A DNA stretch of 64,000 nt from Alphaproteobacteria bacterium (GTDB lineage Bacteria > Pseudomonadota > Alphaproteobacteria > Bin95): contig OZ219789.1 in assembly GCA_964291285.2 (NCBI GenBank), positions 128,001 through 192,000 on the forward strand, given 5' to 3'. The notes beneath the pieces are model-generated. The model saw only the letters and a list, made by a program, of their open reading frames with translations, was not told the DNA's origin and ran no database searches. This document shows, in pieces, positions 10,900-59,393 of the stretch (its first letter is position 1; the number at the start of each line of letters is the position of its first letter). A program made the translations under genes and the position numbers.

Positions 10900-12324
10900 A
10901 TGGACGGGCTCCAGACGGCAATATCGGGGGAAACGGCGGCCGCCAACCGGCCGATAGCCGCCATGCTGGCGGAGTTCGCCTGCCGGCTCGACGACCGCGC
11001 GGTCCCCGACCGGGTGATGGAGCGCGCGCGCCTCCACATCCTCGACTGCATCGGCATCGCGCTCGCCTCGACCGGCTACGAGTTCGGCCGGCGCACGGTA
11101 GAGGCCATGCGCGGGCTCGCCGGCGAGGGGCCGTCGCCGGTCATCGGCACGGACATTCGCCTGCCGCTGCGCGATGCGGCGCTGGTCAACGGCACGCTCG
11201 TCCACGGCCTCGACTATGACGACACCCATTCCGACGGCGTGGTCCATGCGTCGGCCTCGGCGCTCGTCGCCGCGCTGGCGCAGGGCTTCGCCTCCGGCGC
11301 CTCGGGCCGGGACCTGCTGGCCGCCTACCTGGTCGGCGTCGAAGCGTCGTCGCGGATCGGCCAGGCGGCGCAAGGGGGCTTCCATGTGCGGGGGCACCAT
11401 CCGACGGGCCTTGTCGGCGCGTTCGGCGCGGCGCTGACGGCCGCCCGGCTTACCGGCCTCTCCGAGCGCGAGGCGGCGATGGCGCAGGGCATCGCGCTCT
11501 CCATGGCCGCCGGCAGCCTGGAGTTCCTCTCGGACGGCGCCTGGACCAAGCGCATCCATCCCGGCTGGGCGGCCGTGGCCGGCATTACCGCGGCCGCGCT
11601 CGCCGGCGGCGGCTTCCAGGGCCCGAGCGCGCCCTATGAGGGGCGCTACGGCCTCTACAACCTGCATCTGGGCGCGGACCACGAGGCGCGCCTCGACATG
11701 GCGACGGCCGCTCTCGGCGAGGTCTGGGAGCTGGAGAACGTGGCCTTCAAGCCCTACCCCGCCTGCCACTTCAACCACGCCTTCGCCGACGCGGCGCTGG
11801 CGCTCCGGCGCGACCACGGGCTCCGGCCGGAGGATGTGGACAGCATCACCGGCTATATCGCCGACGCGCAGGCCAATGTCGTCTGCCGCCCGGAGGAGAC
11901 CAAGAAGCGCCCGCAGAACAGCTACGACGCCCAGTTCTCGATGCACTACACCATCGCCGCGGCCCTCAAGCACGGCCGCTTCACCCTCGACGAGATCGAC
12001 CCGGACGCGATCTCCGACCCGGAGGTGCTGGCGCTGGCGGACCGGGTGGAGTTCGCCATCGACCCGGACTCGGCCTTTCCGCGCTACTATTCCGGCGAGA
12101 TCAGGGTCCGCACCCGCGACGGGCGCGAGCTGCGCCACCGCGAGGCGGTCAACCGCGGCTCCGACGCCAACCCGCTCTCGGCCGAGGACATCGCGGCCAA
12201 GTTCCGGGACAATGCCGACCGCGCCGTCAGTCCCGAGCGCCGGGAGCGCATCTTCGAGGCCGTCATGACCCTCGACCGCGCCCCCGACCTCAAGGAGCTC
12301 GACGCCGCGCTTTGCGAGGGCTGA
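10900..12324 (+). CDS. MmgE/PrpD family protein
   Basis: NGTLVHGLDYDDTH, GHHPTG, KRIHPG, FKPYPACH and AQFS motifs. Confidence 0.92.
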   Translation: MDGLQTAISGETAAANRPIAAMLAEFACRLDDRAVPDRVMERARLHILDCIGIALASTGYEFGRRTVEAMRGLAGEGPSPVIGTDIRLPLRDAALVNGTLVHGLDYDDTHSDGVVHASASALVAALAQGFASGASGRDLLAAYLVGVEASSRIGQAAQGGFHVRGHHPTGLVGAFGAALTAARLTGLSEREAAMAQGIALSMAAGSLEFLSDGAWTKRIHPGWAAVAGITAAALAGGGFQGPSAPYEGRYGLYNLHLGADHEARLDMATAALGEVWELENVAFKPYPACHFNHAFADAALALRRDHGLRPEDVDSITGYIADAQANVVCRPEETKKRPQNSYDAQFSMHYTIAAALKHGRFTLDEIDPDAISDPEVLALADRVEFAIDPDSAFPRYYSGEIRVRTRDGRELRHREAVNRGSDANPLSAEDIAAKFRDNADRAVSPERRERIFEAVMTLDRAPDLKELDAALCEG

Positions 12325-12340
12325 GGGGCGCAGGGACGCG

Positions 12341-14623
12341 ATGCCGTCCCGTCTCTCCTCCGCCGCCGCCGGGCTTGCCATCGGCGCGGCGGTGTTGCTG
12401 CTCTCGGCCTGCGCGCTGCTGGCGCCCCTGCCGAAGCCGAAGGGCGTCGCCGCGCGGCTTGAGGCATTCCCGACGCGCGGCCTGCCGCTGGACGGGCGGG
12501 TGACGATCCGCTGGAGCGAGCAGCAGATTCCCTTCATCGAGGCAGAGAGCGACGGCGATGCGGCGTTCGCGCTCGGCCTCGTGCACGCGCATCTCAGGCT
12601 CGGCCAGATGGCGATGGCGCGCATGCTCGCGCGGGGGCGCCTGTCCGAGATGATCGGCCCCATGGGCGTCGATATCGACCGCGGCCTGCGCACGCTCTCC
12701 TACGGCCGCGCCGCGGCGGAGATCGAGCGGAGCATGGACGGTGACGCCCTGCTCTGGGTCCGGCGTTTCGTGGACGGCATCAACCATTACCAGGACGGCG
12801 CGGCCGAACTGCCGCACGATTTCGCCATTCTGGGCCTGGAGCCGGAGCCGTGGACCGTCGCCGACGTTCTGGCCATCGGGCGGCTCGGCGGCACCGACGT
12901 GAACTGGCTGGTCTGGGCCGACCTGCTGGCGCTCCGCGCGCGGGACGACTGGCCCGAGCTCTGGGCGCGTCTTGTGAAGGAGGGCGGCACGTCCTTCGCC
13001 AGCTTCGGCGGGCCCGAACGCATGGCCGCGATACAGGAATGGCTCGCCGGCGTCTCCCGGTCGGGCAGCAACAGCGTCGCCGTGGCGGGCCGGCGCAGCG
13101 CCACCGGCGGGGCGCTGATGGCCAACGACCCGCATCTCGGCATCTTCATTCCCAACGTCTGGCTGATCGCGGGCGTGCGCTCGCCCTCCTGCCACGCGGT
13201 CGGGCTGATGGCGCCGGGCCTGCCGATCTTCGCCATCGGCCGCAATCCGCACATCGCCTGGGGCGGCACCAACATGCGGGCGGCCTCCAGCGACCTCTAC
13301 AATGTCGAGGGCATACCCGAGGCCGACATCGCGGAGCGGCGCGAGCGGATCGGCGTGCGCTGGTGGTTCGACGAGGAAGCGACCGTCCGCGAGACCCGCT
13401 GGGGGCCGATCGTGACCGACACGCCGCTGCTCGCGAAGTTCGACCTGCCGCCGCTCGCGCTGAAATGGACCGGGCACGGCGCGAGCGACGAGATCGGCGC
13501 CATGCTCAGGGTCTGCCGGGCGAAGAGCTTCCCGGAGTTCCGCGCCGCCTTCCACAGCTTCGCCGTGCCGGGGCAGAACATGCTCTATGCGGACAGGGAG
13601 GGGAATATCGGCCAGGTGATGGCGGTGTGGCTGCCCGCGCGCCGGGGCGCGCCCGACGACATTTTCCTCGACACCGCCGCGCATGACGCCGCCTGGGGCG
13701 CGATGCGCACCGGGGCGGACCTGCCCTGGAGCCTCAACCCCGAGACCGGCTTCCTGGTCTCGGCCAACAACCGCCCCTCGGAGACCGATGTGCCCGTCGG
13801 CTTCTTCTTCTCGCCCGATGACCGCGTCAAGCGCATGACCCGGCTGATCGGGGGCGAGGCGGAGGTGGGCGTCGAGACCCTCAAGGCGCTGCAGCAGGAC
13901 GTGTACATGCCGTCCTCGGCCGAGCTGCGCGACCTCTTCCTTGCCAGGCTCGACGGGTCGGGGCTGGCCGCGGCGGCGGACGCCAAAGGCGCGGAGGCGA
14001 TCGGCAGGCTGCGCGAGTGGGACGGCGCCTACCGGCGCGAGTCGCTGGGCGCGGTCGCGTTCGAGCAGTTCCGCCACGGCTTCGTGCGGCGCTTCTACGT
14101 CCTGCGCTACGGGGAAGGCGACGGCGAGGCGTTCGCGAAGCTGCGCCGGGGCACGGCGCTGCTGGCCGACGATATCGCGGCCGCCGACGAGGAGACCGTG
14201 CGCGCGGCGCTCGTTGCCGGGCTGCGCGCTGCGGCGGACGGCCTCGACGCCTTCTCCGGCTGGGGAGACATGCACCGCCTCCGCCTCGCCCATCCGCTCT
14301 CCCGCGCTCCGCTCATCGGCGGACGCTACCGCTTCGTCGAAGAGGGCGTCGCCGGGAGCTCGGAGACGGTGATGAAGACCGCGCACAACGCCACCGCCGA
14401 GCGCCATACCGTCACCTACGGGTCCAATGCGCGGCACATTTCAGACCTGTCCGACCCGGACGGGAACTGGTTCGTCCTGCTCGGCGGGCAGGACGGCTGG
14501 TTCAACAGCACGACCATGCTCGACCAGTGGGAACTGTGGCGGCGCGGCGAGTATGTGCGCGTGCCGCTCACGCCGTCCGAGGTGCGCGCGAGTTTTCCGC
14601 ACGTGCTGACCTTGGAGAACTGA
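12341..14623 (+). CDS. Penicillin acylase family Ntn-hydrolase (probable lipoprotein)
   Basis: Lipobox LSAC; GSNSVAV nucleophile site; ANDPHL, QNMLYAD and SANN motifs. Confidence 0.92.
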   Translation: MPSRLSSAAAGLAIGAAVLLLSACALLAPLPKPKGVAARLEAFPTRGLPLDGRVTIRWSEQQIPFIEAESDGDAAFALGLVHAHLRLGQMAMARMLARGRLSEMIGPMGVDIDRGLRTLSYGRAAAEIERSMDGDALLWVRRFVDGINHYQDGAAELPHDFAILGLEPEPWTVADVLAIGRLGGTDVNWLVWADLLALRARDDWPELWARLVKEGGTSFASFGGPERMAAIQEWLAGVSRSGSNSVAVAGRRSATGGALMANDPHLGIFIPNVWLIAGVRSPSCHAVGLMAPGLPIFAIGRNPHIAWGGTNMRAASSDLYNVEGIPEADIAERRERIGVRWWFDEEATVRETRWGPIVTDTPLLAKFDLPPLALKWTGHGASDEIGAMLRVCRAKSFPEFRAAFHSFAVPGQNMLYADREGNIGQVMAVWLPARRGAPDDIFLDTAAHDAAWGAMRTGADLPWSLNPETGFLVSANNRPSETDVPVGFFFSPDDRVKRMTRLIGGEAEVGVETLKALQQDVYMPSSAELRDLFLARLDGSGLAAAADAKGAEAIGRLREWDGAYRRESLGAVAFEQFRHGFVRRFYVLRYGEGDGEAFAKLRRGTALLADDIAAADEETVRAALVAGLRAAADGLDAFSGWGDMHRLRLAHPLSRAPLIGGRYRFVEEGVAGSSETVMKTAHNATAERHTVTYGSNARHISDLSDPDGNWFVLLGGQDGWFNSTTMLDQWELWRRGEYVRVPLTPSEVRASFPHVLTLEN

Positions 14624-14638
14624 CGCCGGAACCCGACC

Positions 14639-16198
14639 ATGCACGACGCCACCTGGCTTCTCCGGCTCTATGCCCGCCAGCGCCTCCGGCATCTGGCGCA
14701 TATGGACCCGGAACAGGCGCAGCGCCGCACCCTGTCGTCCCTCATCCGGAAGGCCCGCCGCACGCAATTCGGCCGGGACCACGGGTTTTCCGCCGACTGG
14801 TCCCTCGACGACTTCCGTTCGCGCGTTCCGCTCAGGGACTATGACGCCTTCTGGGAAAGCTACTGGCGCGAGCCCTTCCCCCGCCTGACCGACTGCACCT
14901 GGCCGGGCCTCATCCCGTGGTTCGCCGTCTCGTCCGGGACGACGACCGGCACGACGAAATACATCCCCGTCAGCCGCGAGATGCGCCGGTCCAACGTGCG
15001 CGCGGGCGCGGAGCTGATGGTCCACCATCTCGCCAACCGGCCGGAAAGCCGGCTGCTGGGGGGCCGCGTCTTCATGCTGGGCGGCTCGACCGGGCTGGTC
15101 CGCCGGGCGCCGGGGGTCTCCAGCGGCGATCTGAGCGGCATCGCGGCCGCGGAAATGCCCGGCTGGGCGCGGCTGCGCTACTTCCCGCCGCGCGACCTGG
15201 AGAGCATCGCCGACTGGGAGGAGAAGATCGACCGCTTCGCGGCGCGCTCCCTGGACGAGGAGATTTCGGCCGTGGCGGGCACGCCGAGCTGGCTGCTGAT
15301 CTTCTTCGAGCGCCTGGCCGAGACCGCCGGCAGCGGGTCCGGCCGGGTCGCCGGCATCTGGCCCCGGCTCGAAATGCTGAGCCACGGCGGCGTCGCCTGG
15401 GCGCCCTATCGCGACCGCTTCGCCGCCTTGCTCGAAGGCAGCGGCGCGGAAACCCGCGAGGTCTATCCGGCGAGCGAGGGGTTCTTCGGCATCGCCGACC
15501 GCGGGGACGGGGAGGGTCTCCGGCTGCTGCTCGACACCGGCATCTTCTACGAGTTCATCCCCCTCGACGAGCTCGACAGCCCCGAGCCGGACTGCCGCTG
15601 GATCGGCGACGCGGAGCCGGGCGTCAACTACGCGCTCGCGGTTACGACATGCGCGGGCCTCTGGCGCTACCTCGTCGGCGACACGGTGACCCTGGTCGAA
15701 CGCGACCCGCCGCGCGTCCTGGTCACCGGGCGGACGAGCTACATGCTGTCCGCCTTCGGCGAGCACGTCATCGGCGCCGAGGTCGAGCGCGCCGTAGCGG
15801 AGGCCGCAAGGGCCATCGGCGCGACGGTCAGCGACTTCGCCGCCGGCAGCCTGTTCCCGGAGGAGACCGGCCGGCGCGGCGGGCACCTATACATCGTCGA
15901 GTTCGGGGCGGAACCCGGCGGGAGCGGCCCCGACGCCGCGCGGCAGGCCCGCTTCGCCAAAACGCTGGACGCGGCGCTCTGCCGCCTCAACGACGACTAT
16001 GACGCCCACCGCGCGGGCGGCTACGGCCTGGACGCCGCGCGCGTGCGCGTCATGCCGCCCGGCGGTTTCGCGGCATGGATGAAGAGCCGCGGCAGGCTCG
16101 GCGGCCAGAACAAGGTGCCCCGCATCGTCAACGACCGCGAGCTCTTCGCCGCCTTGCGGGCCTTTGCAGATGCGCACGGAGCGCCGCCGCCAAATTGA
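14639..16198 (+). CDS. GH3 family acyl-acid amido synthetase
   Basis: SSGTTTGTTKYIP, YPASEGF, YEFIP, WRYLVGD and GGQNKVPR motifs. Confidence 0.92.
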   Translation: MHDATWLLRLYARQRLRHLAHMDPEQAQRRTLSSLIRKARRTQFGRDHGFSADWSLDDFRSRVPLRDYDAFWESYWREPFPRLTDCTWPGLIPWFAVSSGTTTGTTKYIPVSREMRRSNVRAGAELMVHHLANRPESRLLGGRVFMLGGSTGLVRRAPGVSSGDLSGIAAAEMPGWARLRYFPPRDLESIADWEEKIDRFAARSLDEEISAVAGTPSWLLIFFERLAETAGSGSGRVAGIWPRLEMLSHGGVAWAPYRDRFAALLEGSGAETREVYPASEGFFGIADRGDGEGLRLLLDTGIFYEFIPLDELDSPEPDCRWIGDAEPGVNYALAVTTCAGLWRYLVGDTVTLVERDPPRVLVTGRTSYMLSAFGEHVIGAEVERAVAEAARAIGATVSDFAAGSLFPEETGRRGGHLYIVEFGAEPGGSGPDAARQARFAKTLDAALCRLNDDYDAHRAGGYGLDAARVRVMPPGGFAAWMKSRGRLGGQNKVPRIVNDRELFAALRAFADAHGAPPPN

Positions 16199-16249
16199 CG
16201 CGCTCCCCGTCCGCCGCCAGAATGGCCGCAGCGGCGGGGAGAGCAGTCG

Positions 16250-16618
16250 ATGGAGACGGTCAGGGTCGGGTCGGTCGAGGAATTCGCGCCGCTGCCCGCG
16301 AGGAAGGTGGTCGAGGTCGGCGGCGAGGAGGTCGGCATCTTCCGCCTCGACGACGGCTTCTACGCCTGGCGCAACAACTGCCCGCACCAGGGCGGCCCCG
16401 TCTGCCAGGGCCGCATCTACAACCGGGTCCTCGAGTCGCTCGACGCCGCGCGCCGCTCGCTCGGGCGGCGCTATGACGAGGAGCGGGTCAACATCGTCTG
16501 CCCGTGGCACGGGCTGGAATACGACATCCGCACCGGCCGCCATCCCGGCAATGACGGCATGGCGCTGGAGCCCGTCGCGGTCCAGGTCCAGAACGGAGAG
16601 GTCTATGTCTCCCTCTGA
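16250..16618 (+). CDS. Rieske [2Fe-2S] ferredoxin
   Basis: CPHQGGP and CPWHG ligand motifs. Confidence 0.92.
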   Translation: METVRVGSVEEFAPLPARKVVEVGGEEVGIFRLDDGFYAWRNNCPHQGGPVCQGRIYNRVLESLDAARRSLGRRYDEERVNIVCPWHGLEYDIRTGRHPGNDGMALEPVAVQVQNGEVYVSL

Positions 16619-16982
16619 CCTGCGCGGCCACAACGACGCTTACGCGGATTTCGACGAGGACGCGCGCCGCCTCTGGACGCTCGCCGCGGGGGCGGTGGAA
16701 CGCGGCGAGGCCCACCGCATCCCGGACAGCGCCGTCGCCGACCTGATGACCGCCGCCGTCAAGCTCTACGCCGCCAAGGCGGACGGCGAGGACCGCACCT
16801 TCCGCCCGCTGCACGGGCGCTATGACGAGGTGGTGACGCCGACCGAGGCGCTGACCGCCGTCACCGAATTGCTGCGCGCGCTGCGCCTCGGGCCGATGGA
16901 ATTCGGCCTCTGGTCCCGCCGCCGCCCGGAGGACTATCATTTGAGCGAGGCCGCGCCGGCGGCCGCCGAGGAGGAGGCCTGA
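16605..16982 (+). CDS. Conserved hypothetical protein associated with Rieske/amidohydrolase clusters
   Basis: ATG after a GGAGAG SD, overlapping the Rieske gene; AVKLYAA...TPTEA...LLRAL.L motif. Confidence 0.65.
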   Translation: MSPSDLRGHNDAYADFDEDARRLWTLAAGAVERGEAHRIPDSAVADLMTAAVKLYAAKADGEDRTFRPLHGRYDEVVTPTEALTAVTELLRALRLGPMEFGLWSRRRPEDYHLSEAAPAAAEEEA

Positions 16983-16986
16983 GCCC

Positions 16987-18222
16987 ATGGATGCCGCGAT
17001 CCGGACCGCCAGCGTCATGCCCGTGCAGGAAATGGGCACCGAGACCGACACGCGCGATTACCTGGCCCATGCCCGCGCCCATGCCCGCAAGGCGGGCTAC
17101 GCCGACTGGACCATCGTCGATATCGACGCGCACCATGTCGAGACCGTCCACTGGCACGAGATCATCGACTATATCGAGGACCCGGTGCTGCGCCACCAGG
17201 CGACGATGTACCAGAAGGAGCGCATCGGCGCGCCGCCCTACGGCCTCAACGGCGATCTCGGCCTGCGCTACCAGGATGTCGGCGGGCGCATCCCGCACCA
17301 GTCCTCGCGGCGCGAGAAGGTGGACGAGCCGGGCGTGCATCTCGACGTGGCGCTGACGCGCCGGGCAATGGACGCGCTCTGCGTGGACTACATGGTGCTC
17401 TTCCCGACGCCGATGCTGTTCATCGGCATGCACCCGCAGGTGGAGATGGAGGCGGTTCTGTCGAACGCCTACAACCGCTGGCTGGCTGAGAACGTGCTCT
17501 CGGCCGAGGACGGCATCCTGTCGCTCGCCGTGCTGCCCTTCAACTCGCCGGACGCCGCCTGCCGCACGGTCGAGGAGTTCGGCGGCAACCCGAACGTCAT
17601 CGGCTTCACCGTCACCTCGACCCGCTACAAGCCGGTCCATTCCAACGAATATATGCGCCTCTACCGCATGATCGAGGAAACCGGAAAGCCCATCGCCTTC
17701 CATGCCGGCTACCACTGGCAGGACCCCTCGCTCGCCACCTGCAACAGCTTCCTCGGCATGCATGCGCTGGGGTTCGTGTGGTGCAACCTCGTGCACATGA
17801 CCAACTGGATCCTGAACGGCATCCCGGAGCGCTTCCCGAAGCTGAACAGCCTCTGGGTGGAGAGCGGGCTTTCCTGGGTCCCGTTCCTGATACAGCGGCT
17901 CGACGACCAGTATCTGATGCGCCAGAGCGAGGCGCCGCTGCTGACCAGGATGCCGTCGGACTACATGCGCGAGAGCTGCTTCTACACCTGCCAGCCGCTC
18001 GAGAAGAGCAGCGAGGTGGGCCTCAGGGCGACCCTGGAGATGATCAAGGCCGAGACGCAGCTTCTCTACGCCTCGGACTGGCCGCATTTCGACTTCGACG
18101 CGCCGCGCGCGATCTACGACATCCCGTTCCTGACCGAAGACCAGAAGCGCAACATCCTCGGCCGCAACGCCGCCCGCCTGTTCAACCTCCCGAAGAAGGA
18201 GGGCGCGCGGAAGGCGGCGTAG
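16987..18222 (+). CDS. Amidohydrolase_2 family protein (possible dinuclear oxygenase)
   Basis: DIDAHH, LFPT, AYNRWL, FHA, ERFPKL...ESG..W and YASDWPHFDFD motifs. Confidence 0.88.
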   Translation: MDAAIRTASVMPVQEMGTETDTRDYLAHARAHARKAGYADWTIVDIDAHHVETVHWHEIIDYIEDPVLRHQATMYQKERIGAPPYGLNGDLGLRYQDVGGRIPHQSSRREKVDEPGVHLDVALTRRAMDALCVDYMVLFPTPMLFIGMHPQVEMEAVLSNAYNRWLAENVLSAEDGILSLAVLPFNSPDAACRTVEEFGGNPNVIGFTVTSTRYKPVHSNEYMRLYRMIEETGKPIAFHAGYHWQDPSLATCNSFLGMHALGFVWCNLVHMTNWILNGIPERFPKLNSLWVESGLSWVPFLIQRLDDQYLMRQSEAPLLTRMPSDYMRESCFYTCQPLEKSSEVGLRATLEMIKAETQLLYASDWPHFDFDAPRAIYDIPFLTEDQKRNILGRNAARLFNLPKKEGARKAA

Positions 18223-18244
18223 AGGGGTATCCGATCACGATAAA

Positions 18245-19940
18245 CCTAAATCCGGCAGTTGACGAGCTTGATCGCTGTCTCGGGGTAGTGTGAACGGTCG
18301 GATTTGGGCGTGGATTTCAGCACGTGGTCGCGGCCCTGGGTGGCGGCAGCCAGGGTTGACGCCCCGGTTCGCGGCCATGGAGGTATTTCCTGAGCGCCTC
18401 GGCGAGGATGCGGCGCCAGCGATCCCCGGCGCTCAACTGCTCCGCAGTTTGCGTCAGCGACCGGAAGAAGCCGGCGATCCGGCGCAGCGCCGCCATCACC
18501 GTCTTGCGACGCCCGTGATGGGAGGTCACCGTCAGCCGGGTCTGGCCGGCGTGGTGGGTCTGGCGGGCAACCCCGTGCAGGAGCAGCGGCCGGCTGGTGA
18601 TCGCCTCGCGGTGATGGTCGGGGTCGGCGAGGCGCACGAACAGGCTCCACCAGTTGTAGATGAGCGCGATCAGCCGGGCCATGTGCCGGCAGCGCGTCAG
18701 GTCGCGCGTGGTGAAGCCGCCCCAACCCCACTGGTTCTTCAACTCGTCGAAGCCGTTCTCCGCGTCCGCCCGGTCGCGGTAGAGCTGGGCCAGCGAGCGT
18801 ATCTCCAGGTCCAGCGAGGTCGCCAGCACCGCGAACTCCCACACCCCGGTGCCGGGCTGCGCCTCGGTCCAGAACAGCTCGCCCTGGGCCTTGTCGCCAC
18901 GCGTCAGCGCCAGCGTCGCAGGAAGCCGCCGACGCAGCACCACAACCCGGCGCGTCCGGCTCCAGCCCTGCAGACGCAGATCGGCCCCGATCCCCGACCA
19001 GCCCTGGCCTGCATCCTCCCAGCCGTCCCGCACCATCAGCCGCTCGGCAAGCCGGCGCGCCCCCTTCGTCAGGCGCAGCTTGAACAAATAGTCCAGACCC
19101 GCAGCCTCGCACGACGCCATGTTGGCCTCGCTGCCCCAGTCCTTATCGCCCCGCACCAGACGCGGCCAGCGATCCCGACCGAGACGGTCGAGCAACGCCC
19201 ACAAGGACGGCGCCGCGCGCCTCGAATGGTGATGGTTGCCCGGCGCCACCTCGACATCCAGAACAAGCCGCGTGCCCGCCATCAGGAACGCATGGCAGGC
19301 ATGCGAGGGGCGGCCCGGCTTCTTCGGGTTGTAGCTCACAACCGCCCCCTCCTGACGACCGTAAAGCGCCTTGATCGTCGTGTCGCAGTCCAGAACCCAC
19401 GGCTCCCTCAGCAGCGGACGGACCACCTCGTCCAGATGGCCCTGAAGCCACGATGTGCCGACATCCGCACCGATCCGCTCCAGACCGCGCCGCACCGAAT
19501 CCTCGCTCGCAACCTTGTCCATACCCAGCAGCGCAGGGTTCACCCCGTCGCCGCGCAGCGACGTGATGTGCGCATAGCGAGACTGCCCCGCCAGAACCGA
19601 CAGAAGAACCGTCCCCAGGACATCCCGCTTCGACGGCGCGTTCGGGCTCGTGTAGTGCAGCGGGCAGTCCGCAACCAAAGCGTCAAAGCGACCGCTTACC
19701 TTCAGGTATTCCGAGAAAAACGCCAGATGCCCCAGCGGCGTCACCGCCGCATCAGGGTCCCATTCCACATGAACCGCGCCGCCGAAGGTGTCCACCTTCA
19801 CCGACGCTCGGGCGACATCCCGCACAGCGCCAGGATAATCACCCAAAGGGTGAGCCTCTTCGGCCCCTGAAAAGCCGCTCATACCCGCAGACTACAAGGG
19901 ATTCGGCAAGGCCAAGCCATCCTCAACTGCCGGATTTAGG
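18245..19940 (-). mobile_element. IS1380-family insertion sequence
   Basis: Perfect 18-bp terminal inverted repeats CCTAAATCCGGCAGTTGA / TCAACTGCCGGATTTAGG; 5-bp target duplication ATAAA at 18240-18244 and 19941-19945. Confidence 0.92.
18317..19882 (-). CDS. IS1380-family DDE transposase
   Basis: LDCDTT...YGRQEGA...YNPKKPGRPS, RGD and YRDRADAENGFDELKNQWG motifs. Confidence 0.9.
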   Translation of the reverse strand: MSGFSGAEEAHPLGDYPGAVRDVARASVKVDTFGGAVHVEWDPDAAVTPLGHLAFFSEYLKVSGRFDALVADCPLHYTSPNAPSKRDVLGTVLLSVLAGQSRYAHITSLRGDGVNPALLGMDKVASEDSVRRGLERIGADVGTSWLQGHLDEVVRPLLREPWVLDCDTTIKALYGRQEGAVVSYNPKKPGRPSHACHAFLMAGTRLVLDVEVAPGNHHHSRRAAPSLWALLDRLGRDRWPRLVRGDKDWGSEANMASCEAAGLDYLFKLRLTKGARRLAERLMVRDGWEDAGQGWSGIGADLRLQGWSRTRRVVVLRRRLPATLALTRGDKAQGELFWTEAQPGTGVWEFAVLATSLDLEIRSLAQLYRDRADAENGFDELKNQWGWGGFTTRDLTRCRHMARLIALIYNWWSLFVRLADPDHHREAITSRPLLLHGVARQTHHAGQTRLTVTSHHGRRKTVMAALRRIAGFFRSLTQTAEQLSAGDRWRRILAEALRKYLHGREPGRQPWLPPPRAATTC

Positions 19941-19960
19941 ATAAAATGAGGCGACGTCCG

Positions 19961-20090
19961 CCCTTCGATACGCGCCCCCTTCGTCAGGCTCAGGGCAGGC
20001 TGCTGACGCGGTCGCCACTCAGGGTGAGGGAAAAAACGAAACTCCGGGAATTCCTTCATCCCGAGTAGCGGCGGAGCCGCGTATCGAGGG
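19961..20090. repeat. REP/RIME-like palindromic repeat, copy 2
   Basis: Shares CCCTTCGATACGCGCCC, ACTCAGGGTGAGGGAAA and TCATCCCGAGTAGCGGCGGAGCCGCGTATCGAGGGACG with 751-865. Confidence 0.85.
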
Positions 20091-20114
20091 ACGACCGGAC
20101 TGCCGGCCGGCGTG

Positions 20115-20975
20115 TCATTTGCCCGCCTTCAGGGCTTTGGCGAACTTTGCCGCCTCTTCGGGTTTCATGCTGTAGCTGTGGTCCTCGTCCGGGAACAGTC
20201 CGGCGCGCACCTCTTCGGCATAGTCGGCGAAGGCTTCGGTCGCGATTTCGGCGATGTTGCCGTAGCGCTTGGCGAATTTCGGCTTGAAGGTATCGAAGGC
20301 GCCGATCAGGTCGTAGCCGTTGAGCAGCTGGCAGGTGCCCGCCGAGCCGGCGCCGATGGAGAAGGTGAAGATGCTCACCGCCTCGTCGACCGCCTTGCCG
20401 ACCTCGTAGGGCATCGCCTCGATCTCCAGGCCGATGGCGCCGGCCTCTTCGATAGCCCGGGCGTTGTCGACGATCTCCAGCGCGTCCTCCGCCGTGCGGC
20501 CCTGCATTTTGAAGCCGCCGTATTTGTGCACATAGTGGGGCAGCAGCCCGACATGGCTCATGACGGGGACGCCGGCGTCGGCGACCGCCCTGATGATGTC
20601 GAACATCTCGCGCCCGCCCTGCAGCTTCACCGCTTCGGCGCCGCTTTCCTTCATCATCCGCACGGCGTTCGTCACCGCCAGGTCGGCGGTGGCGTAAGAC
20701 CCGTAGGGCATGGAGACGAGGCAGAATGTGTTCGGCGCGCCGCGGCGGACGGCCCTGGTGTGCTCGATCATCTGGTCGACGGTCATGGGCAGCGTGTTCT
20801 CGTGCCCGTAAAGCGTCATGCCCAGGCTGTCCCCGACGCCCAGTATGTCGATACCGGCCCGCTCCGCCCAGGCTGCGGTCAGGCATTCGCCGACCGCCAC
20901 CATCGCCAGCCGCTCGCCCGCCGCCTTCCTGGCGGCGAGATCCGGAATGGTCAGTCTGGGGCGCCGGTCGGTCAT
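20115..20975 (-). CDS. panB: 3-methyl-2-oxobutanoate hydroxymethyltransferase-like (PanB family)
   Basis: GDSLGM, AVKL.GG, HVGLLP, GGFKMQGR, IGAG and PKFAKRY motifs; N-terminal motif is divergent. Confidence 0.82.
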   Translation of the reverse strand: MTDRRPRLTIPDLAARKAAGERLAMVAVGECLTAAWAERAGIDILGVGDSLGMTLYGHENTLPMTVDQMIEHTRAVRRGAPNTFCLVSMPYGSYATADLAVTNAVRMMKESGAEAVKLQGGREMFDIIRAVADAGVPVMSHVGLLPHYVHKYGGFKMQGRTAEDALEIVDNARAIEEAGAIGLEIEAMPYEVGKAVDEAVSIFTFSIGAGSAGTCQLLNGYDLIGAFDTFKPKFAKRYGNIAEIATEAFADYAEEVRAGLFPDEDHSYSMKPEEAAKFAKALKAGK

Positions 20976-21281
20976 CCGATTTCGTTCCATCGATTTTGCC
21001 ATACTACCGGGCCGCAACCCGATCGGGTCCGCTCCGGTCGATCCGACGGATTTCGCCAAGGCGCTCGCAGCGAAGCGTCATTCCCCGGGCACAGGCCGGG
21101 GCGCCGTCTGCTGGCCGAAGCGGGACTCCATCGCCTGCCGCCGCCGCATGGGCGGCGATCCGGTCCATGCGCCCTTCCTCCGCCGGGATCTGCCGACAGT
21201 GTTTAGGCCGCTTCCCGCGTTCCTGCAACGGGCCGTTTCCTGCCGTGCGCGGGCAATGTCGACGCTTGTCCGGGGGCATCA

Positions 21282-21353
21282 GTTTTCCTCTTGTTCGTTT
21301 TTTTGAAATAATTCCGTAATTGAGGCTTGCATTTTAGGAAAATGTGCTACAAT
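21282..21353 (+). promoter_or_regulatory. Putative promoter with degenerate alphaproteobacterial LexA box
   Basis: GTTT-N7-GTTC at 21282-21296; TTGCAT (21327)-N15-TACAAT (21348) with TGTG just upstream of the -10, in an AT-rich island. Confidence 0.5.
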
Positions 21354-21440
21354 GGGTCCGAGGTGAGCGAAGTCCGCGCGGACCGCTTCCCGCCCGCGCC
21401 GGCCCGGTGCGGAACGACCCCGATTCGACGCACAGGCGAA

Positions 21441-21497
21441 GTGCGCCCTCTGGCTCGCGCGCGCAATCAGGCGCGCGAACCGCGCCGGCGCCGACAC
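21441..21497 (+). repeat. 57-bp conserved hairpin core of dispersed cassette, copy A
   Basis: GTGCGCCCTCTGGCTCGCGCGCGCAATCAGGCGCGCGAACCGCGCCGGCGCCGACAC is 56/57 identical to the reverse complement of 46543-46599. Confidence 0.92.
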
Positions 21498-21591
21498 CCG
21501 CCCGCGCCCGCACGCGATTGCGCGCGGATAAGGGTCGCTCCCCGCCGGGCCTGCCTGTCGAACGCCAGCGGAACGAAAGGACCCGCACACC

Positions 21592-22581
21592 ATGCCCGTC
21601 ATCGACCCCGCCGTCGCGCTTTCCACCCGCCAGGAAGCCTTCTGCCGCCACTACACAGCGTCCGGCAATGCCGCAGACGCCGCAAGGCAGGCCGGCTATG
21701 CCGAGCGCTCCGCACGACAGACCGGATGCGCCCTGCTGGAGCGGCCCTACATCGTCGAGCGCGTGCGCCGCATCCGCCTGTCGTGGCGGCGCACCGAACG
21801 CGACGAGGCCCGCATCCTGCTCACCCGCTCGGAGCAGGCCTGGGACGCCGCCGTCGCCAGCGGCTCGGCCTACATGATGCTGCGGGTGCTGCGCTTCCAG
21901 GCCGAGATCGCCGGGCTTGTCAGTCCGGCCGGCGCGAACCGCGCCCGCCTCTGGCCGCTGCCGCACGAGGATGAACTCGGCGAGATCGAAGCGGGCGAGG
22001 CTCTGGAGACGGGCACCGAACCCGGACCGCTCGCAGACGCCGTGCGCCTAGGGCGGGACCGGGCCGAACGAGCGCTCGCCCGCCACCGCGAGCGGCGCGA
22101 GGAGATGGAGGCGCAGGAGGGCTTCGACGGGGCCGCGCATGAGGAGGACGCCCGCAGGCTCGCCGCGGCCGTCGAGGAGCGTTCCCGCCTGCCCGTCAGC
22201 TTCGGCCCCCCGCCCGCGCCGGCAAACGACCTGCCGCCGGCCGACGACCCGCCGGAGGAGACCTACGAAGACTGCCCCTGGGCCGCCGCCGACACACCCG
22301 GCCACGAGGACAGCACCGACGACGACCGGGCCGACGGCGCCGAACATGACTGGCTCTACCAGCGCCGCAACGGATACGACGACATCTACGACCCCTGGGC
22401 CCCGGAGGAGGTCGAAGAGCGCAGGCAGAGCCGCCTCGAACGGGAAGAGCGGGGCGGCGACGAAGACGACGATTGGAGCGGACCGGCGGCGAGGGGGAAG
22501 AAGCAGAAAAAGAAGAAGGGGAAAAAGCGGAGGACCGGCCCGGAGAACGCCGGTTCCGCCCCCGACCATGACAAAACATGA
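21592..22581 (+). CDS. Terminase small subunit-like HTH protein with long acidic/basic low-complexity tail
   Basis: LSTRQEAFCRHYTASGNAADAARQAGYAERSARQTGCALLERPYI matches the phage TerS (Terminase_2) N-terminal HTH pattern; AAGGA SD. Confidence 0.75.
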   Translation: MPVIDPAVALSTRQEAFCRHYTASGNAADAARQAGYAERSARQTGCALLERPYIVERVRRIRLSWRRTERDEARILLTRSEQAWDAAVASGSAYMMLRVLRFQAEIAGLVSPAGANRARLWPLPHEDELGEIEAGEALETGTEPGPLADAVRLGRDRAERALARHRERREEMEAQEGFDGAAHEEDARRLAAAVEERSRLPVSFGPPPAPANDLPPADDPPEETYEDCPWAAADTPGHEDSTDDDRADGAEHDWLYQRRNGYDDIYDPWAPEEVEERRQSRLEREERGGDEDDDWSGPAARGKKQKKKKGKKRRTGPENAGSAPDHDKT

Positions 22582-22593
22582 CATTCCATGACA
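22567..22593 (+). repeat. CATGACA x3 direct repeats at 10-bp period
   Basis: CATGACA starts at 22567, 22577 and 22587; the middle unit contains the stop codon of the TerS-like ORF. Confidence 0.88.
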
Positions 22594-22621
22594 CGGCGCC
22601 AGGGGCCGCCGCCATTCCTCT

Positions 22622-22707
22622 CCTCTCCCGCCTGCAGGAAAGGCCGGGAGGGGATAGGAGCACCGCGATGAGATCCCCTCTCCCGCCCGCGGAAGAGCCG
22701 GGAGAGA
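22622..22707. repeat. Two degenerate CCTCTCCCG...CGGGAG(A/G)G hairpins (REP-like, possible terminator)
   Basis: Hairpins at about 22622-22653 and 22675-22707 between convergent genes. Confidence 0.55.
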
Positions 22708-34101: not shown

Positions 34102-34176
34102 TGGGGCGTAGCCAAGCGGTCAAGGCAGCGGGTTTTGATCCCGCGATCCCTGGTTCGAATCCAGGCGCCCCAGCCA
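34102..34176 (+). tRNA. tRNA-Gln(TTG)
   Basis: TGGGGCGTAGCCAAGCGGT...; anticodon arm GCGGG-TTTTGAT-CCCGC; T-loop GGTTCGAATCC; ends in CCA. Confidence 0.96.
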
Positions 34177-46010: not shown

Positions 46011-46091
46011 CATGTCATGAGATGTCATGTTTTGTCATGCGGGCCCGGCAGGACACTGCGCAACATGTCATGAAGTGTCATGTTTTCCATG
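46011..46091 (-). repeat. Two sets of CATGACA repeats at 10-bp period (end of cassette copy B)
   Basis: TGTCATG at 46013, 46023, 46033, 46066 and 46076, plus one degenerate unit. The reverse complement CATGACAAAACATGACATCTCATGACA matches 22567-22593. Confidence 0.88.
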
Positions 46092-46218: not shown

Positions 46219-46464
46219 TCATTGCGGCCTGCACGGAGCCGGTCCTACCACCCGCCGGGGCCGGCGCCTCCACCTCCGGCTGCGGGACCCAGGCGTCGAG
46301 GTCGTTCGCCGGCTCCCCGGCAGGTGCGGGCACAGACTCGGGCAGATGGGCGGCGGCCCGGCGCTCATCTCCTCCACATAGGCCGTGGCAAGGGCCGCGG
46401 CGGCCGGCGCGAGCCTTTCGGCCGGCATCGCGGCCAGCCCGGGGCGGGGGTCGGTTGCCGTCAT
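46219..46464 (-). CDS. Short hypothetical ORF (81 aa), possibly a frameshifted remnant, inside cassette copy B
   Basis: Strong AAGGAGG SD before the ATG at 46464; a continuation in another frame reads PAPAGEPANDL. Confidence 0.4.
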   Translation of the reverse strand: MTATDPRPGLAAMPAERLAPAAAALATAYVEEMSAGPPPICPSLCPHLPGSRRTTSTPGSRSRRWRRRPRRVVGPAPCRPQ

Positions 46465-46542
46465 CGTTCCTCCTTCTCCGACGGGGAGCGGGTCCCTGTT
46501 TCCGCGCGTATCCTGCGCGGGCGCCCGCGCCTGCCCGGGCGC

Positions 46543-46599
46543 GTGTCGGCGCCGGCGCGGTTCGCGCGCCTGATTGCGCGCGCGAGGCAGAGGGCGCAC
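46543..46599 (-). repeat. 57-bp conserved hairpin core of dispersed cassette, copy B
   Basis: The reverse complement is 56/57 identical to 21441-21497. Confidence 0.92.
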
Positions 46600-46695
46600 G
46601 TCTCCCGTCGGCTTCTCACGGGTTTTCAGAAACTGGCGCCGCTCGGCCGCGCAGCACCCGGGGACGCGGCTCCGGAGTCCGCTTCCCTGGGGACC

Positions 46696-46737
46696 ATCAT
46701 ACCACAATCCGTCAGATGTCAAGATCAAAAAGCGAAC
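46696..46737 (-). promoter_or_regulatory. Putative promoter with abutting alphaproteobacterial LexA box
   Basis: On the minus strand, GTTC-GCTTTTT-GATC is immediately followed by TTGACA-N15-TATGAT with an extended TG. Confidence 0.6.
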
Positions 46738-46877
46738 AAAAATCAAAATCATTAGATTTTTTTCATGATTCCGCTAGGGCAGGAAACATGAAGCAGGGAT
46801 TCGGGTTGCGGTTGAGGACGGCCGGCGGCGGGGGCAAGATGGAAGCGGTATCCGGTAGCGGTCGGCGGACGAGGGCG

Positions 46878-56950: not shown

Positions 56951-57114
56951 GGATGCAGCCCACGAGGAGGCCGAGCAGGCAAAGCCCGAGGAAGATCACC
57001 AGATGCGGCATCTCCGCGCCGTTCCCGCCTTCAATCGGGATAGGGGGGAGCCTCACGGCTCCACCCCTCCCACACCACCGTGCATACGGGTCCGTACACG
57101 GCGGTTCGACGGAT

Positions 57115-58503: not shown

Positions 58504-58515
58504 GAGCCTGTCGTC

Positions 58516-59297
58516 CTAGGTCCTGTGGACGGATTTGATCAAGATGAAGGCAGCGGCGAGTGCGACGAAGGAGCTGAAGTTTGTGGCGGTCTTTTCGCAG
58601 CGCAGGGCGATGCGTTTGAAGCGTTTGAGCTTGCCGACGGCCTGTTCGATGCGCGCCCGTCCTCTGTAGAGCGCGCTTGCGAAGCGCTTTGGCCTGTTTT
58701 TGATGTTCTTCCGGTAGGGAATGACGGTCAGGGCGCCTCTTTTCCGGGCGAGTTGGCGGTTTCCGGCGCTGTCATAGCCCTTGTCGGCGACGATGGCGCG
58801 GGGCCGGACATCGGGGCCGATGTCCATCAGGGTCTCGAAATGCGGACTGTCGGCTGCCTCGCCGCCGGTCAGGTCGAAGGCGATCGGCAGGCCGTCGAAA
58901 TCGGTCTTCAGGTGGATTTTGGTGCTGAAACCGCCCCGCGAGCGTCCAAGCGCCTGACCCTGCTGCCCCCTTTTGCGCCGGCCGCCGATACATGCGCGCG
59001 GGTCACGGTCGAATCGAACATCTGAACCAGGTGCGCCGTGCTGCTCAAATCCGCCAGCGTGGCGAAAAAGTCCTCGAACACCCCTGAACGGCTCAGACGG
59101 TGAAAACGCCGCCATACCGTATTCCAGTGCCCGAACCGCTCCGGCAGCGCCCGCCAGGTGATGTTGTGAACCGCAAAGAAGTGCAGCGCCTCCAGAAACA
59201 GACGGTCGTCCTTCGCCTTCGCACCCCGCCTCGGAAGGCAAAGCCGGAAAACCTCCAGCGCAACCTCCCAGTCTCCATTCGTCATCTTCGTCGACAT
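58516..59297 (-). CDS. IS5-family transposase, two overlapping ORFs joined by a probable -1 frameshift
   Basis: OrfA has WRALPERFG.W.TV..RF and DST..RAH..AAGAK; OrfB has ALGRSRGGFSTKIH, ADKGYDS and IE....KLK.FKRIA.R. Slippery AAAAGGGGG at 58974-58966. Confidence 0.88.
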
Positions 59298-59393
59298 CAA
59301 CGAAACCCCCGAATCGCCGACGCCTCATGATTCAGACAAATCCTCGCACGGGAATCCCTGAACACGCTCCTGAGTCAATACGTCCACAGGGCC
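58519..59393 (-). mobile_element. IS5-family (IS427-like group) insertion sequence, 875 bp
   Basis: Terminal inverted repeats GGTCCTGTGGACG / CGTCCACAGGGCC; TA duplication at 58517-58518 and 59394-59395. Confidence 0.9.

Follow-up and report, generated by a model that had tools for sequence, protein, structure and literature searches.

In phages, the pac site often lies within or beside terS, the gene for the small terminase, and in the SaPI satellites terS sits in a LexA-controlled operon. The closest described counterpart of the protein considered here is the SPP1-like SF6 small terminase G1P (3ZQQ/3ZQP, 2CMP and 4ZC3), which gave the best Foldseek and phmmer matches and shares with it an N-terminal helix-turn-helix (HTH) and long helices. 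SF6 G1P and pac also present a repeat array at or next to terS, as do the cassettes described below. The cassette protein differs from G1P, however, in its 200-aa disordered acidic and K-rich tail, and its gene is found in 2–12 copies per genome where present and never adjoins a large terminase gene. Satellites of the SaPI/PICI, PICMI and cf-PICI types likewise carry terS without a terL of their own and have an SOS box in front; a cassette acting in their manner would depend on a helper, as they do. In contrast to SaPI/PICI, a full-length cassette is 1.36 kb long, has a single recognised ORF and lacks an integrase, att, replication genes and regulatory genes, while cassettes number dozens per genome, carry a long structured leader and have no identified helper.

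Two further kinds of element invite comparison. Repeats such as REP/BIME, Correia, BOX, ERIC and LDR/QUAD are, like the cassettes, multi-copy, intergenic and modular, are transcribed and folded, and act as hot spots for IS insertion, whereas the cassettes are 0.45–1.4 kb long, have a promoter-like box and Shine-Dalgarno sequence (SD) of their own and lack terminal inverted repeats. Set against LDR/QUAD and similar repeats, they carry two real protein cargoes, and their small ORFs are hydrophilic with no conserved frame. Phage morons share with the cassettes the arrangement of an autonomous promoter-gene-end unit between unrelated genes, but the cassettes are chromosomal rather than prophage-borne, are multi-copy and have a common leader and 3′ array.

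Layout and extent of the cassette family

The 64,000-nucleotide window analysed here comes from an uncultured alphaproteobacterium with relatives that live in association with sponges. The preliminary description of this window had noted two loci that share the same ordered parts, and all of these parts are indeed in place at both, in copy A on the forward strand and copy B on the reverse strand. The order is an AT-rich stretch containing TTGTTC, a promoter-like box, a leader, an SD, an optional ORF and an array of CATGACA heptads. The family extends far beyond two copies: the host genome holds 91 copies of the conserved core of the leader and 113 clusters of CATGACA heptads at exact 10-bp spacing. 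As had been proposed, the parts co-occur in fixed order and on a fixed strand, with an array at most 1243 bp downstream on the same strand for 81 of the 91 cores, and a core at most 1.4 kb upstream of 89 of the 113 arrays, most of the other 24 arrays being truncated cassettes. Cassettes are found on all five contigs of the genome in both orientations, and show no replication-strand bias (43/91 co-oriented).

As anticipated, the cargo varies between cassettes: some encode TerS, some a protein of a second family, and others no recognisable product. Full-length terS cassettes number ten in this genome, copy A among them, and short forms predominate: an array lies at most 689 nt away for 66 of the 91 cores, and 69 of 111 core-array distances measured in relatives are below 300 nt, part of the latter loci having been fetched through terS. 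The second cargo family (192–234 aa, beginning MTATDPRP) has no match in Pfam and only a weak one in PHROG, to phrog_31793, an entry without an assigned function. In comparison with its intact members in the host genome, the translated 81-aa ORF of copy B (46219–46464, reverse strand) matches this family over its first ~39 residues and is out of register for the remainder; it is a truncated relative in a decayed cassette.

Beyond the host genome, 13 of 16 further genomes from the genus carry the family, and it recurs in many assemblies made independently. With 91 cores and 113 arrays on five contigs, no matches among shuffled sequences and this recurrence in other genomes, chance similarity or an assembly artefact has a negligible probability as an explanation. 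PLSDB plasmids gave no match to the cassette in either near or distant mode. The entries listed by a limited literature search included nothing on multi-copy small terminases in sponge symbionts, and those listed for CATGACA were unrelated items, the top one dealing with pSK41 ArtA. We conclude that about 90 such cassettes are dispersed over each genome as a clade-specific family, to which copy A belongs as a full-length and copy B as a decayed member; each cassette is best read, from its ordered parts, as its own small transcription unit. The suggestion that the family may be undescribed has held up.

Promoter-like box and leader RNA

The full-length copies in the host genome share similarity from TTGTTC onwards, roughly 150 nt ahead of the core; of 80 undisrupted cassettes, 46 have this motif in their 5′ window, as against 2.5 in shuffles. 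From the alignment and identity profile of full-length copies, this AT-rich stretch occupies 21291–21326 in copy A; in copy B it lies at 46723–46775 (reverse strand; ATGAAAAAAATCTAATGATTTTGATTTTTGTTCGCTTTTTGATC) and is common to the other copies of its subfamily. The sequence GTTTCCTGCC, which occurs at 21235 and 46787 in the window, had been counted as part of copy A's unit, but there it lies outside the repeated region, and we take it to be a chance match since the full-length copies are similar only from TTGTTC on.

The promoter-like box read from copy A (21327–21353) consists of TTGCAT and TGc-TACAAT separated by 15 nt, and a hexamer scan of copy B gives TTGACA and TGg-TATGAT (46697–46722, reverse strand) with the same 15-nt spacer, in agreement with the identical spacing first reported. 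TGn precedes the −10 at both loci, as in a TG-extended −10. Across 80 cassettes, TG is found before the −10 in 47, the commonest spacer is 15 nt, and at least 9 of 12 hexamer positions match in 38, compared to 11 of 80 shuffled windows. A search by the standard sigma-70 criterion, which expects 16–18 nt between the hexamers, misses this 15-nt spacing and returns no promoter-like site at either locus. The label 'LexA-like', originally given to this box, does not apply, as it is not an SOS box; the SOS box sits before the SD instead.

The leader is GC-rich, structured and about 230 nt long, spanning 46465–46690 on the reverse strand in copy B. It includes a nearly invariant 57-nt core, GTGCGCCC..CGCGCGCGCAATCAGGCGCGCGAACCGCGCCGGCGCCGACAC, for which copy A (21441–21497) and copy B (46599–46543) agree at 56 of 57 positions, just as had been described, and the core region (−40 to +60) remains 97–100% identical among ten paralogues with a synonymous divergence of 0.157. 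When sets of 91 and 108 leaders are aligned, conserved positions define a further motif towards the 3′ end, GAT-TGCGCGCG-GATA-AGGGTC-GCTCCCC (21516–21544 in copy A). No family in Rfam 15 matches the leader, with nothing better than E 8 in 21200–22700. Elsewhere in the window, a group II intron and a tRNA are the only Rfam matches at gathering score. The possibility that the core encodes a leader peptide was rejected, because the numbers of nucleotides by which copies differ in length are not divisible by three.

Applied to MAFFT alignments, RNAalifold found only 12 pairs, all invariant or near-invariant, because the alignment is not structure-aware, and therefore hairpin P1 (21361–21391 in copy A) alone was tested, by explicit pair counts. 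Over 108 leaders, 85.4% of P1 cells pair, against 46–60% with slid partners, and both sides have changed in 67 cells, where shuffles give 31.7 and none of 500 attains 67. Many of the pairs are G-U, with the G on the 5′ side. Fold parsing picked a hairpin in 106 of the 108 leaders, not always P1. The conserved hairpin leader of the preliminary description is thus borne out by covariation in P1.

In contigs of one sponge metatranscriptome, which contained a tenth of the sampled words and cannot show starts, ends or expression level, copy B has a depth of 4 at 46722–46772, of 146–238 along the leader and of 1956 at the core. The same bins in a DNA run have depths of 3215, 11065–21015 and 94972, and the RNA/DNA depth ratio drops about 15-fold upstream of the promoter. 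The pattern around the promoters of copies A and B is a weak hint of promoter activity. Per copy, cassettes are not better represented in these contigs than their flanking genes.

One way to view the cassettes, then, is with the leader RNA as the product, either as a small or cis-regulatory RNA family or as a shared 5′ UTR co-regulating a multigene family. The terS gene and the second protein would be cargo that need not bind the array, and the array would be a 3′ module of the transcript that provides stop and start codons in all three frames, serves for binding or processing, or stands in for a terminator. Consistent with such a role are the near-identity of the core among paralogues whose synonymous sites have diverged, the covariation of P1 with its many G-U pairs, as expected for a sense-strand RNA, the fall in RNA/DNA ratio upstream of the promoter and the predominance of short forms. 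Start positions and reading frames of the small ORFs vary from copy to copy, which points to conservation at the nucleotide level. ORFs end inside the array (HDKT*, HDIP*, HDIS*), the spacing of a triple array places ATG and TGA in all three frames, and neither locus has an intrinsic terminator after the array. Moreover, one complete genome of the genus (G008) has no Terminase_2 match and at least 41 leader matches; all five of the loci read there have promoter-like boxes and the leader, with clean phased heptads in two, so leader-plus-heptad units persist without terS. On account of this genome we regard the RNA as product, although a doubtful proposition, as nearly as likely as the packaging-related reading set out below. 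It has to contend, however, with a leader that lacks an Rfam family, known ligand or target, with RNA data drawn from a single metatranscriptome in which cassettes do not exceed their flanking genes per copy, and with the fact that three-frame stops need no 7-nt units at exact 10-nt spacing. The behaviour of arrays in other genera, to which we return, also speaks against it.

SOS box, small-terminase-like protein and heptad array

Ahead of its ORF, copy A carries the SOS-box-like direct repeat GAACGCCAGCGGAAC (21560–21574), a perfect example of the alphaproteobacterial form GAAC-N7-GAAC, and the SD GAAAGGA (21575–21581) follows directly. The lexA gene of the host genome, on contig C3 at 1242.7 kb, has a box of the same form, GAACCAATATAGAAC, in its promoter. 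Perfect boxes number 111 in the 6.1 Mb of this genome; all 11 terS-type cassettes have one, and none of the 80 others does, copy B included. Among 73 terS loci of relatives, the ATG is preceded at 21–34 nt by a perfect box in 43, whose spacers come in 17 versions, and 18 more have a box with one mismatch.

The ORF itself (21592–22581, forward strand, 329 aa) comprises an HTH DNA-binding domain and two long helices (aa 1–106), a long acidic and proline-rich tail and a K/R-rich end. It matches Terminase_2 in Pfam (E 1.9e-11, aa 11–70) and terS (PHROG 51, E 9.3e-13), annotated phage terS genes match it over aa 7–122, and its PDB matches are 4zc3, 2cmp and 3zqp. For the AF2 model (pLDDT 83.8, and above 90 for helices 52–90 and 93–106 of the monomer) the ten best Foldseek matches are all small terminases; the DNA-binding domain gives a TM of 0.85, an rmsd of 1.5 Å and 39% identity. 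The alignment to full-length 3zqq spans 126 columns and has a probability of 1.00, but an E of 0.011 and a TM of 0.39, the query being a monomer model. Judged by these matches and the predicted structure, the N-terminus has a genuine small-terminase fold of the SF6/SPP1 type, as the original identification of a TerS-type HTH would have it. Among 34 intact ORFs, dN/dS is 0.19 for aa 1–115 and 0.45 for the tail; the terS ORFs are kept by purifying selection. The host genome has 12 Terminase_2 matches, every one within a cassette, and the terS-like family comprises at least 299 clusters in public data, with only the automatic name 'terminase small subunit'.

The stop codon of this ORF falls inside an array of three CATGACA heptads at exact 10-bp spacing (22567–22593). 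Copy B has a pair (46066–46082) and a triple (46013–46039) on the reverse strand, with a short GC-rich, hairpin-like spacer between them. The phasing claimed at the outset is far from random: CATGACA-N3-CATGACA has five matches in the window against 0.00 expected from 100 shuffles, and successive ATGAC[AG] pairs in the host genome are spaced by 10 nt in 278 cases, 9 nt in 6 and 11 nt in 5. Arrays contain two (64 arrays), three (92) or four (10) heptads, and the spacers between heptads are almost free of G. Of 44 occurrences of an IS3-like end, 16 lie exactly 6 nt past the final heptad, as would be expected beside a protein-bound or bent site. By its arrangement, the 10-bp phased array that overlaps the 3′ end of terS is a candidate TerS binding site.

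More distant genera help to separate the parts. Their terS genes (45–58% identity) lack the leader core at all 15 loci read, and a perfect or one-mismatch GAAC-N7-GAAC directly follows the −10 at most of these. At about 10 of 16 distant terS loci, 2–6 nnTGAC[AG] units at 10-bp spacing follow the gene, and the HTH motif SARQTG is kept across the genera that retain TGACA. The link between terS and heptads is therefore older than the leader, and since several of the distant arrays do not overlap the stop codon, the array is not just a stop-codon device; both points weigh against the RNA-centred view.

We tentatively prefer, at somewhat short of an even chance, a reading in which the cassette combines a new leader RNA with a minimal terS-pac-like module under SOS gating. 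LexA and the leader would hold terS translation low; upon DNA damage, the TerS-like protein would be made and form a ring, which would bind the phased heptads beside its own gene with one HTH per turn, as phage TerS does on pac. The cassette would then be a terS-pac module that uses the large terminase and capsids of an induced or incoming phage, and the outcome would be either that packaging of the adjoining chromosome is started or that phage packaging is diverted. Short cassettes would be leader-plus-array units without terS, the leader having been added in this genus to an older unit of terS, heptads and SOS box. We count in favour of this module the fixed order of parts, the TerS fold, the selection on it, the confinement of Terminase_2 matches to cassettes, the SOS box in 11 of 11 cases, the exact phasing, the terS-heptad link and SARQTG motif of other genera and the position of the IS3-like end. 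Counted against it are the want of a known partner, the leader-bearing units of G008 that lack terS, the unbiased orientation of the cassettes and two features of the SOS box. The box is imperfect or lost in 30 of the 73 terS loci of relatives, and in this genus its spacer is GC-rich and its position, immediately ahead of the SD and about 200 nt past the −10, does not overlap the promoter or transcription start. The model also leaves unexplained the conservation of promoter and leader in the ~80 cassettes that lack terS.

The same protein and arrays could alternatively belong to a domesticated TerS-like factor with no packaging role, for which the arrays would serve as operators, or as roadblocks to transcription, in a regulon linked to SOS. 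A multi-copy HTH protein without a TerL partner, the presence of an SOS box, the placement of arrays at the 3′ ends of units without intrinsic terminators, and the long disordered acidic tail and K/R-rich end, unlike compact phage TerS, are all compatible with domestication. We consider it quite improbable, however, since the arrays are found almost only in cassettes (89 of 113, the remainder mostly in truncated ones), leaving no visible host regulon, and since the protein retains the helices that match the SF6 TerS oligomerisation core.

Packaging partners, mobility and significance

The terS-pac module would require a large terminase, and none of the 12 terS copies of the host genome has one next to it. 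Searches of this genome for capsid, portal and TerL_nuclease gave one match each, all on contig C2 and not on C5, which holds the window, so the early remark that the window has no large terminase, portal or capsid stands; four other TerL families gave no match in the genome. Its only TerL (C2: 89.8–91.4 kb) is part of a decaying head module with no terS ORF beside it, the nearest cassette being about 13 kb away. Homologues of this TerL occur in only 4 of the 16 other genomes of the genus, and across 17 genomes TerL_nuclease is found in 3 and Terminase_6N in 3, compared to 12 with Terminase_2, which tells against the terS-pac reading. Two genomes with 12 and 7 terS (G012 and G007, respectively) have no TerL by TerL_nuclease and Terminase_6N searches. 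IMG/VR holds no close terS, just three relatives at 31–34% identity, and no helper phage was identified. An extension of the packaging model, in which ~10 SOS-gated terS copies and ~100 pac-like arrays, each with its own promoter and leader RNA, would make the multi-replicon genome a collection of packaging start sites and so a chromosome-wide platform for damage-induced transduction or packaging interference, serving a helper phage or GTA-like particle, is decidedly unlikely in our estimation.

The preliminary description had further proposed a mobile, satellite-like element. In seven comparisons a relative has a cassette (gap of 538–1681 bp) at a site where the host genome has none (gap of −8 to 27 bp), while other cassettes are common to relatives at orthologous sites. 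The filled/empty junctions show no target-site duplication of constant length: duplications there vary from ~3 to 22 bp and the inserts hold other repeats. The empty sites could reflect loss as well as gain. The site of copy A is unreadable in this respect, its left flank being rearranged in relatives. No direct-repeat att was seen at the junctions, and between about 21291 and 22593 copy A has no integrase or replication gene, the other listed ORFs overlapping the terS ORF in other frames. None of 80 cassettes has the inverted heptad TGTCATG in its 5′ window, and terminal inverted repeats of MITE type are absent. With inconstant duplications, no integrase inside and no helper phage found, the mobile or satellite interpretation did not fare well.

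These comparisons bear equally on whether the cassettes are a selfish DNA repeat, that is, a past or present mobile family whose terS copies are 'autonomous', the HTH protein recognising the array as a cis end, and whose short forms arose by internal deletion with the cis-acting ends retained. Such a history would account for ~90 copies on five contigs in both orientations, for the seven cassette-less sites alongside cassettes at orthologous sites, for deletion derivatives that keep the first and last terS codons (copies 1, 27, 28, 37, 72 and 81, and L204), for local tandem arrays (L204, and units of ~200 bp) and for intact ORFs under purifying selection, as in autonomous elements. We nevertheless think it unlikely. 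A 5′ inverted heptad is missing throughout, deletion by microhomology explains the empty sites and their variable duplications equally well, the protein shows Terminase_2 only and no recognisable catalytic domain, non-autonomous transposon copies need no conserved promoter or RNA structure, and G008 retains cassettes without terS.

The leader is an unclassified structured RNA with ~90 copies per genome, and is notable independently of any packaging reading. If the chromosome-wide platform is real, it would be built from the smallest known satellite-like unit (terS plus pac in 1.4 kb, with no integrase). Should the arrays prove to be TerS binding sites, the cassette would be the smallest terS-pac unit yet seen and packaging signals would be spread over a whole bacterial chromosome, which would bear on gene transfer in uncultured animal symbionts.

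Anatomy and possible mobility of the cassettes

Copy A (about 21291-22593, + strand) and copy B (about 46775-46013, - strand) contain the parts that the preliminary description had listed for them. They have in common a core of 57 nt (56/57 identical), promoter-like boxes with the same 15-nt spacing, several leader motifs and, as their terminal part, CATGACA heptads; the pattern CATGACA-N3-CATGACA matches five times in the window and in none of 100 shuffles. The shared GTTTCCTGCC is real at both loci but lies outside the unit in copy A, because full-length paralogues in the genome holding the window (G000) begin to resemble each other no earlier than TTGTTC, about 150 nt ahead of the core. Beside the left flank of copy A, positions 19300-19945 recur at 100% identity at a minimum of eight other sites of G000 and at 86-87% at several sites of a relative, G007, and are probably an IS element end. 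Elsewhere, the window contains group II intron RNA domains (57034-59703, - strand; RF02001 at 139 bits, RF01998 and RF00029) and a tRNA gene (34102-34173, + strand; Rfam, 63.6 bits).

G000 (6.13 Mb, five contigs, 68% G+C, with the window in contig C5) holds 91 copies of the core and 113 clusters of 10-bp-spaced heptads. The parts are linked in order and strand, with an array downstream on the same strand within 1243 bp of 81 of the 91 cores. Conversely, a core lies no more than 1.4 kb upstream of 89 of the 113 arrays, and the remaining 24 belong mostly to cassettes that are cut by an IS or have a degenerate core. The phasing of the heptads is exact: successive ATGAC[AG] units are 10 nt apart in 278 pairs, 9 nt apart in 6 and 11 nt apart in 5. 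There are two heptads in 64 arrays, three in 92 and four in 10, and G is almost absent from the 3-nt spacers. Short cassettes prevail, with 175-689 nt from core start to array in 66/91; a full terS-like ORF of 329-336 aa is present in ten, and several short cassettes retain just the first and last terS codons. At one locus (L204 3250-4750, - strand) three core-to-heptad units lie in tandem about 340 bp apart, with a putative promoter on the first and terS cut down to its first ~25 codons and fused to the array. Tandem units of ~200 bp, with heptad arrays flanking each side (G000 C1:1183867-1184381, C1:292895-293102 and others), have nothing between the arrays but an SD, a mini-ORF and a fragment resembling the leader's 3' part.

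Seven comparisons revealed a cassette present in a relative and missing in G000 (gaps of 538-1681 bp versus -8 to 27 bp), while other cassettes occupy orthologous sites in both. The inserted blocks at filled sites frequently hold other repeats, the junction duplications are about 3 to 22 bp, and insertion accounts for the 'empty' sites no better than deletion between short direct repeats. An inverted heptad at the 5' end was found in 0/80 cassettes. Identity with a MITE, which the preliminary description had named as one way for its proposal to fail, does not hold, as the cassettes have neither inverted ends nor duplications of constant length. That they are a selfish repeat we consider unlikely.

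The cassettes themselves serve as insertion targets. In G000 the left end of an IS3-family or IS3-like element, TGGAGTGGGCCCC.., occurs 44 times, and in 16 of these (e.g. C2:1109909, C2:1256575) it lies exactly 6 nt 3' of the last CATGACA; an OrfA-like gene follows it in two cases. Either the element targets sites next to the array, or the two have a terminal motif in common. An IS110-family element ending ..GCTGCAACAACGATCCGGAGAGATACAAG joins the leader at one fixed position, just before the core GTGCG, in five cassettes (G000 C1:641315, C1:860049, C2:876799, C3:1277654 and, similarly, C2:1145179), and a further locus, L221, has an IS110-family transposase ORF within the cassette; these junctions suggest that the IS inserts site-specifically into the leader. 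Another element, with CCGAGTTGCGGAAGTCGGGTTAG as its end and an IS5-like target preference, is inserted at TTAG/CTAA sites inside cassettes, severing their 5' parts (e.g. G000 C2:1300039, C3:683613, C4:567700).

Probable leader RNA and predicted promoter

The 5' half of the cassette is probably an RNA. Its P1 hairpin, immediately 3' of the predicted start, shows covariation in a set of 108 leaders drawn from many genomes: 85.4% of P1 cells are paired, compared to 46-60% with slid partners, and 67 are altered on both sides, compared to 31.7 in shuffles, of which 0/500 reach 67. Compensatory changes occur in 7/9 pairs, and G-U pairs are frequent with the G on the 5' side, which the opposite strand would read as C-A mismatches. 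Ten full-length paralogues with a synonymous divergence of 0.157 are 97-100% identical from -40 to +60 around the core. The leader matches no family in Rfam 15.

The promoter is predicted from sequence. A standard scan reports no site because the spacer is 15 nt, despite good hexamers, and by the same spacing it is not a canonical sigma-70 promoter. In a custom scan of 80 undisrupted cassettes, 38 score at least 9/12 hexamer matches, a level reached by 11 of 80 shuffled windows, and a TG-extended -10 is present in 47 of the cassettes. In contigs of one sponge metatranscriptome, the sole expression data, depth is 1956 at the core, 146-238 in the leader, 4 immediately before the -35 and about 8-18 across flanking genes; matching bins of a DNA run give 94972, 11065-21015, 3215 and about 300-350. 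The RNA/DNA ratio therefore drops ~15-fold at the predicted promoter, a weak hint that it is one. Per copy, cassettes are represented in the metatranscriptome no better than neighbouring genes.

The main rival to the terminase-based reading developed below takes the leader RNA as the functional product and the array as its 3' module; we rate it a little below the favoured reading, at well under even chances. It accounts for the conservation of promoter and leader in cassettes lacking terS, and for G008, a complete, single-contig genome that has no Terminase_2 match yet at least 41 leader matches. All five G008 loci read have promoter-like boxes, P1, core and 3' motifs, with heptads clean and phased in two and degenerate, such as ATGATA, in three. 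The RNA-based reading leaves unexplained the exact 10-bp phasing and the leaderless terS-heptad units of other genera.

Cargo proteins, SOS box and the search for a large terminase

The TerS-like N-terminus proposed for the copy A protein was borne out, and the protein belongs to the small-terminase fold family. Its ORF matches Terminase_2, terS PHROGs and the solved SF6 small terminase structure, with residues 7-122 matching annotated terS genes of many phages. Modelled with AlphaFold2 (pLDDT 83.8), residues 1-130 show an HTH domain and two long helices, and the model's top ten Foldseek hits are small terminases without exception. The other 200 residues form an acidic, proline-rich tail with a K/R-rich end. 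Across 34 intact ORFs from G000 and relatives, dN/dS is 0.19 for residues 1-115 and 0.45 for the tail; the protein is thus under purifying selection and in use. That it is a domesticated DNA-binding factor seems to us quite improbable.

Copy B retains the first ~39 codons of a second cargo family (192-234 aa, MTATDPRP..), which also has an acidic and a K/R-rich stretch, belongs to no Pfam family and weakly matches a PHROG of unknown function. In both cargoes the K/R-rich stretch, KKQKKKKGKKRR (window 22490-22545) and RKRRKKEKRRKKREK (L239, G000 C3:2017820-2018524), is combined with an acidic/proline-rich disordered region and resembles a nuclear-localisation signal, curious for a probable animal symbiont. 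An isochorismatase-family gene (E 3.1e-25), an ordinary metabolic gene within the cassette frame, lies between leader and heptad array at G000 C3:1747531-1748208 (L240 232-909, - strand).

LexA-type control was also suggested, and an SOS-box sequence, GAACGCCAGCGGAAC or GAACCGAAGCGGAAC, is indeed present in all 11 terS-type cassettes of G000, although directly before the SD (21560-21574 in copy A) rather than where it had been placed. It occurs in 0/80 of the other G000 cassettes; genome-wide there are 111 perfect boxes. The G000 lexA promoter carries GAACCAATATAGAAC, the direct repeat known as the alphaproteobacterial LexA box. Among 73 terS loci of relatives, a perfect box lies 21-34 nt before the ATG in 43, with 17 different spacers, while 18 have one mismatch and 12 no box.

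Family searches of G000 with Terminase_6N, TerL_ATPase, Terminase_3 and GpA_ATPase gave no match. Its one phage-like head module (C2:85.3-91.4 kb) comprises a TerL (PHROG 9, E 1e-48), a capsid-like gene, an S78 protease, a portal-like gene and a truncated primase, with no terS ORF beside the TerL; the region (C2:85300-92400, L230 11333-18390) is isolated among metabolic genes. Homologues of this TerL occur in 4/16 other genomes of the genus. Of 17 genomes, 3 have TerL_nuclease, 3 have Terminase_6N and 12 have Terminase_2 (2-12 copies each), and searches with the first two found no TerL in G012 (12 terS) or G007 (7 terS). IMG/VR yielded only three terS relatives, distant at 31-34% identity.

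Origin and possible function

The leader occurs in 13/16 other genomes of the genus and was not found in the eight genomes that represent two further genera of the family. Relatives named by public records are MAGs of Alphaproteobacteria or Rhodospirillaceae, one or more of them labelled as coming from a sponge, and the RNA run containing part of the cassette is labelled 'sponge metagenome'. The protein family spans at least 299 clusters in a large protein collection, called 'terminase small subunit' where named. More distant genera (45-58% identity) likewise carry terS in multiple copies. None of 15 terS loci read upstream in those genera has the leader core. In most, a promoter-like box precedes a GAAC-N7-GAAC box (perfect or with one mismatch) whose spacer is AT-rich; for one locus the upstream sequence is too short to judge. 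Two to six nnTGAC[AG] units at 10-bp spacing follow terS in about 10/16 loci read downstream, in several clear of its stop codon. Thus terS, phased TGACA and SOS box form the older unit, and it was in this genus that the leader was inserted, separating promoter from SOS box.

We tentatively favour, at somewhat short of even chances, full-length cassettes being minimal terS-pac modules and short ones leader-plus-array units. A TerS-like ring would bind the phased heptads with one HTH per helical turn, LexA would gate terS, and the large terminase of an induced or incoming phage would be required. With one recognised gene per cassette, no integrase and no replication gene, the cassette does not qualify as a phage satellite. 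Its working would most resemble that of a terS-pac unit as found in pac phages or SaPIs, here coupled to a dispersed repeat of structured-RNA type. Known to date only from uncultured symbionts, and with a proposed function that we infer, the cassette family is large, conserved, unannotated and testable.
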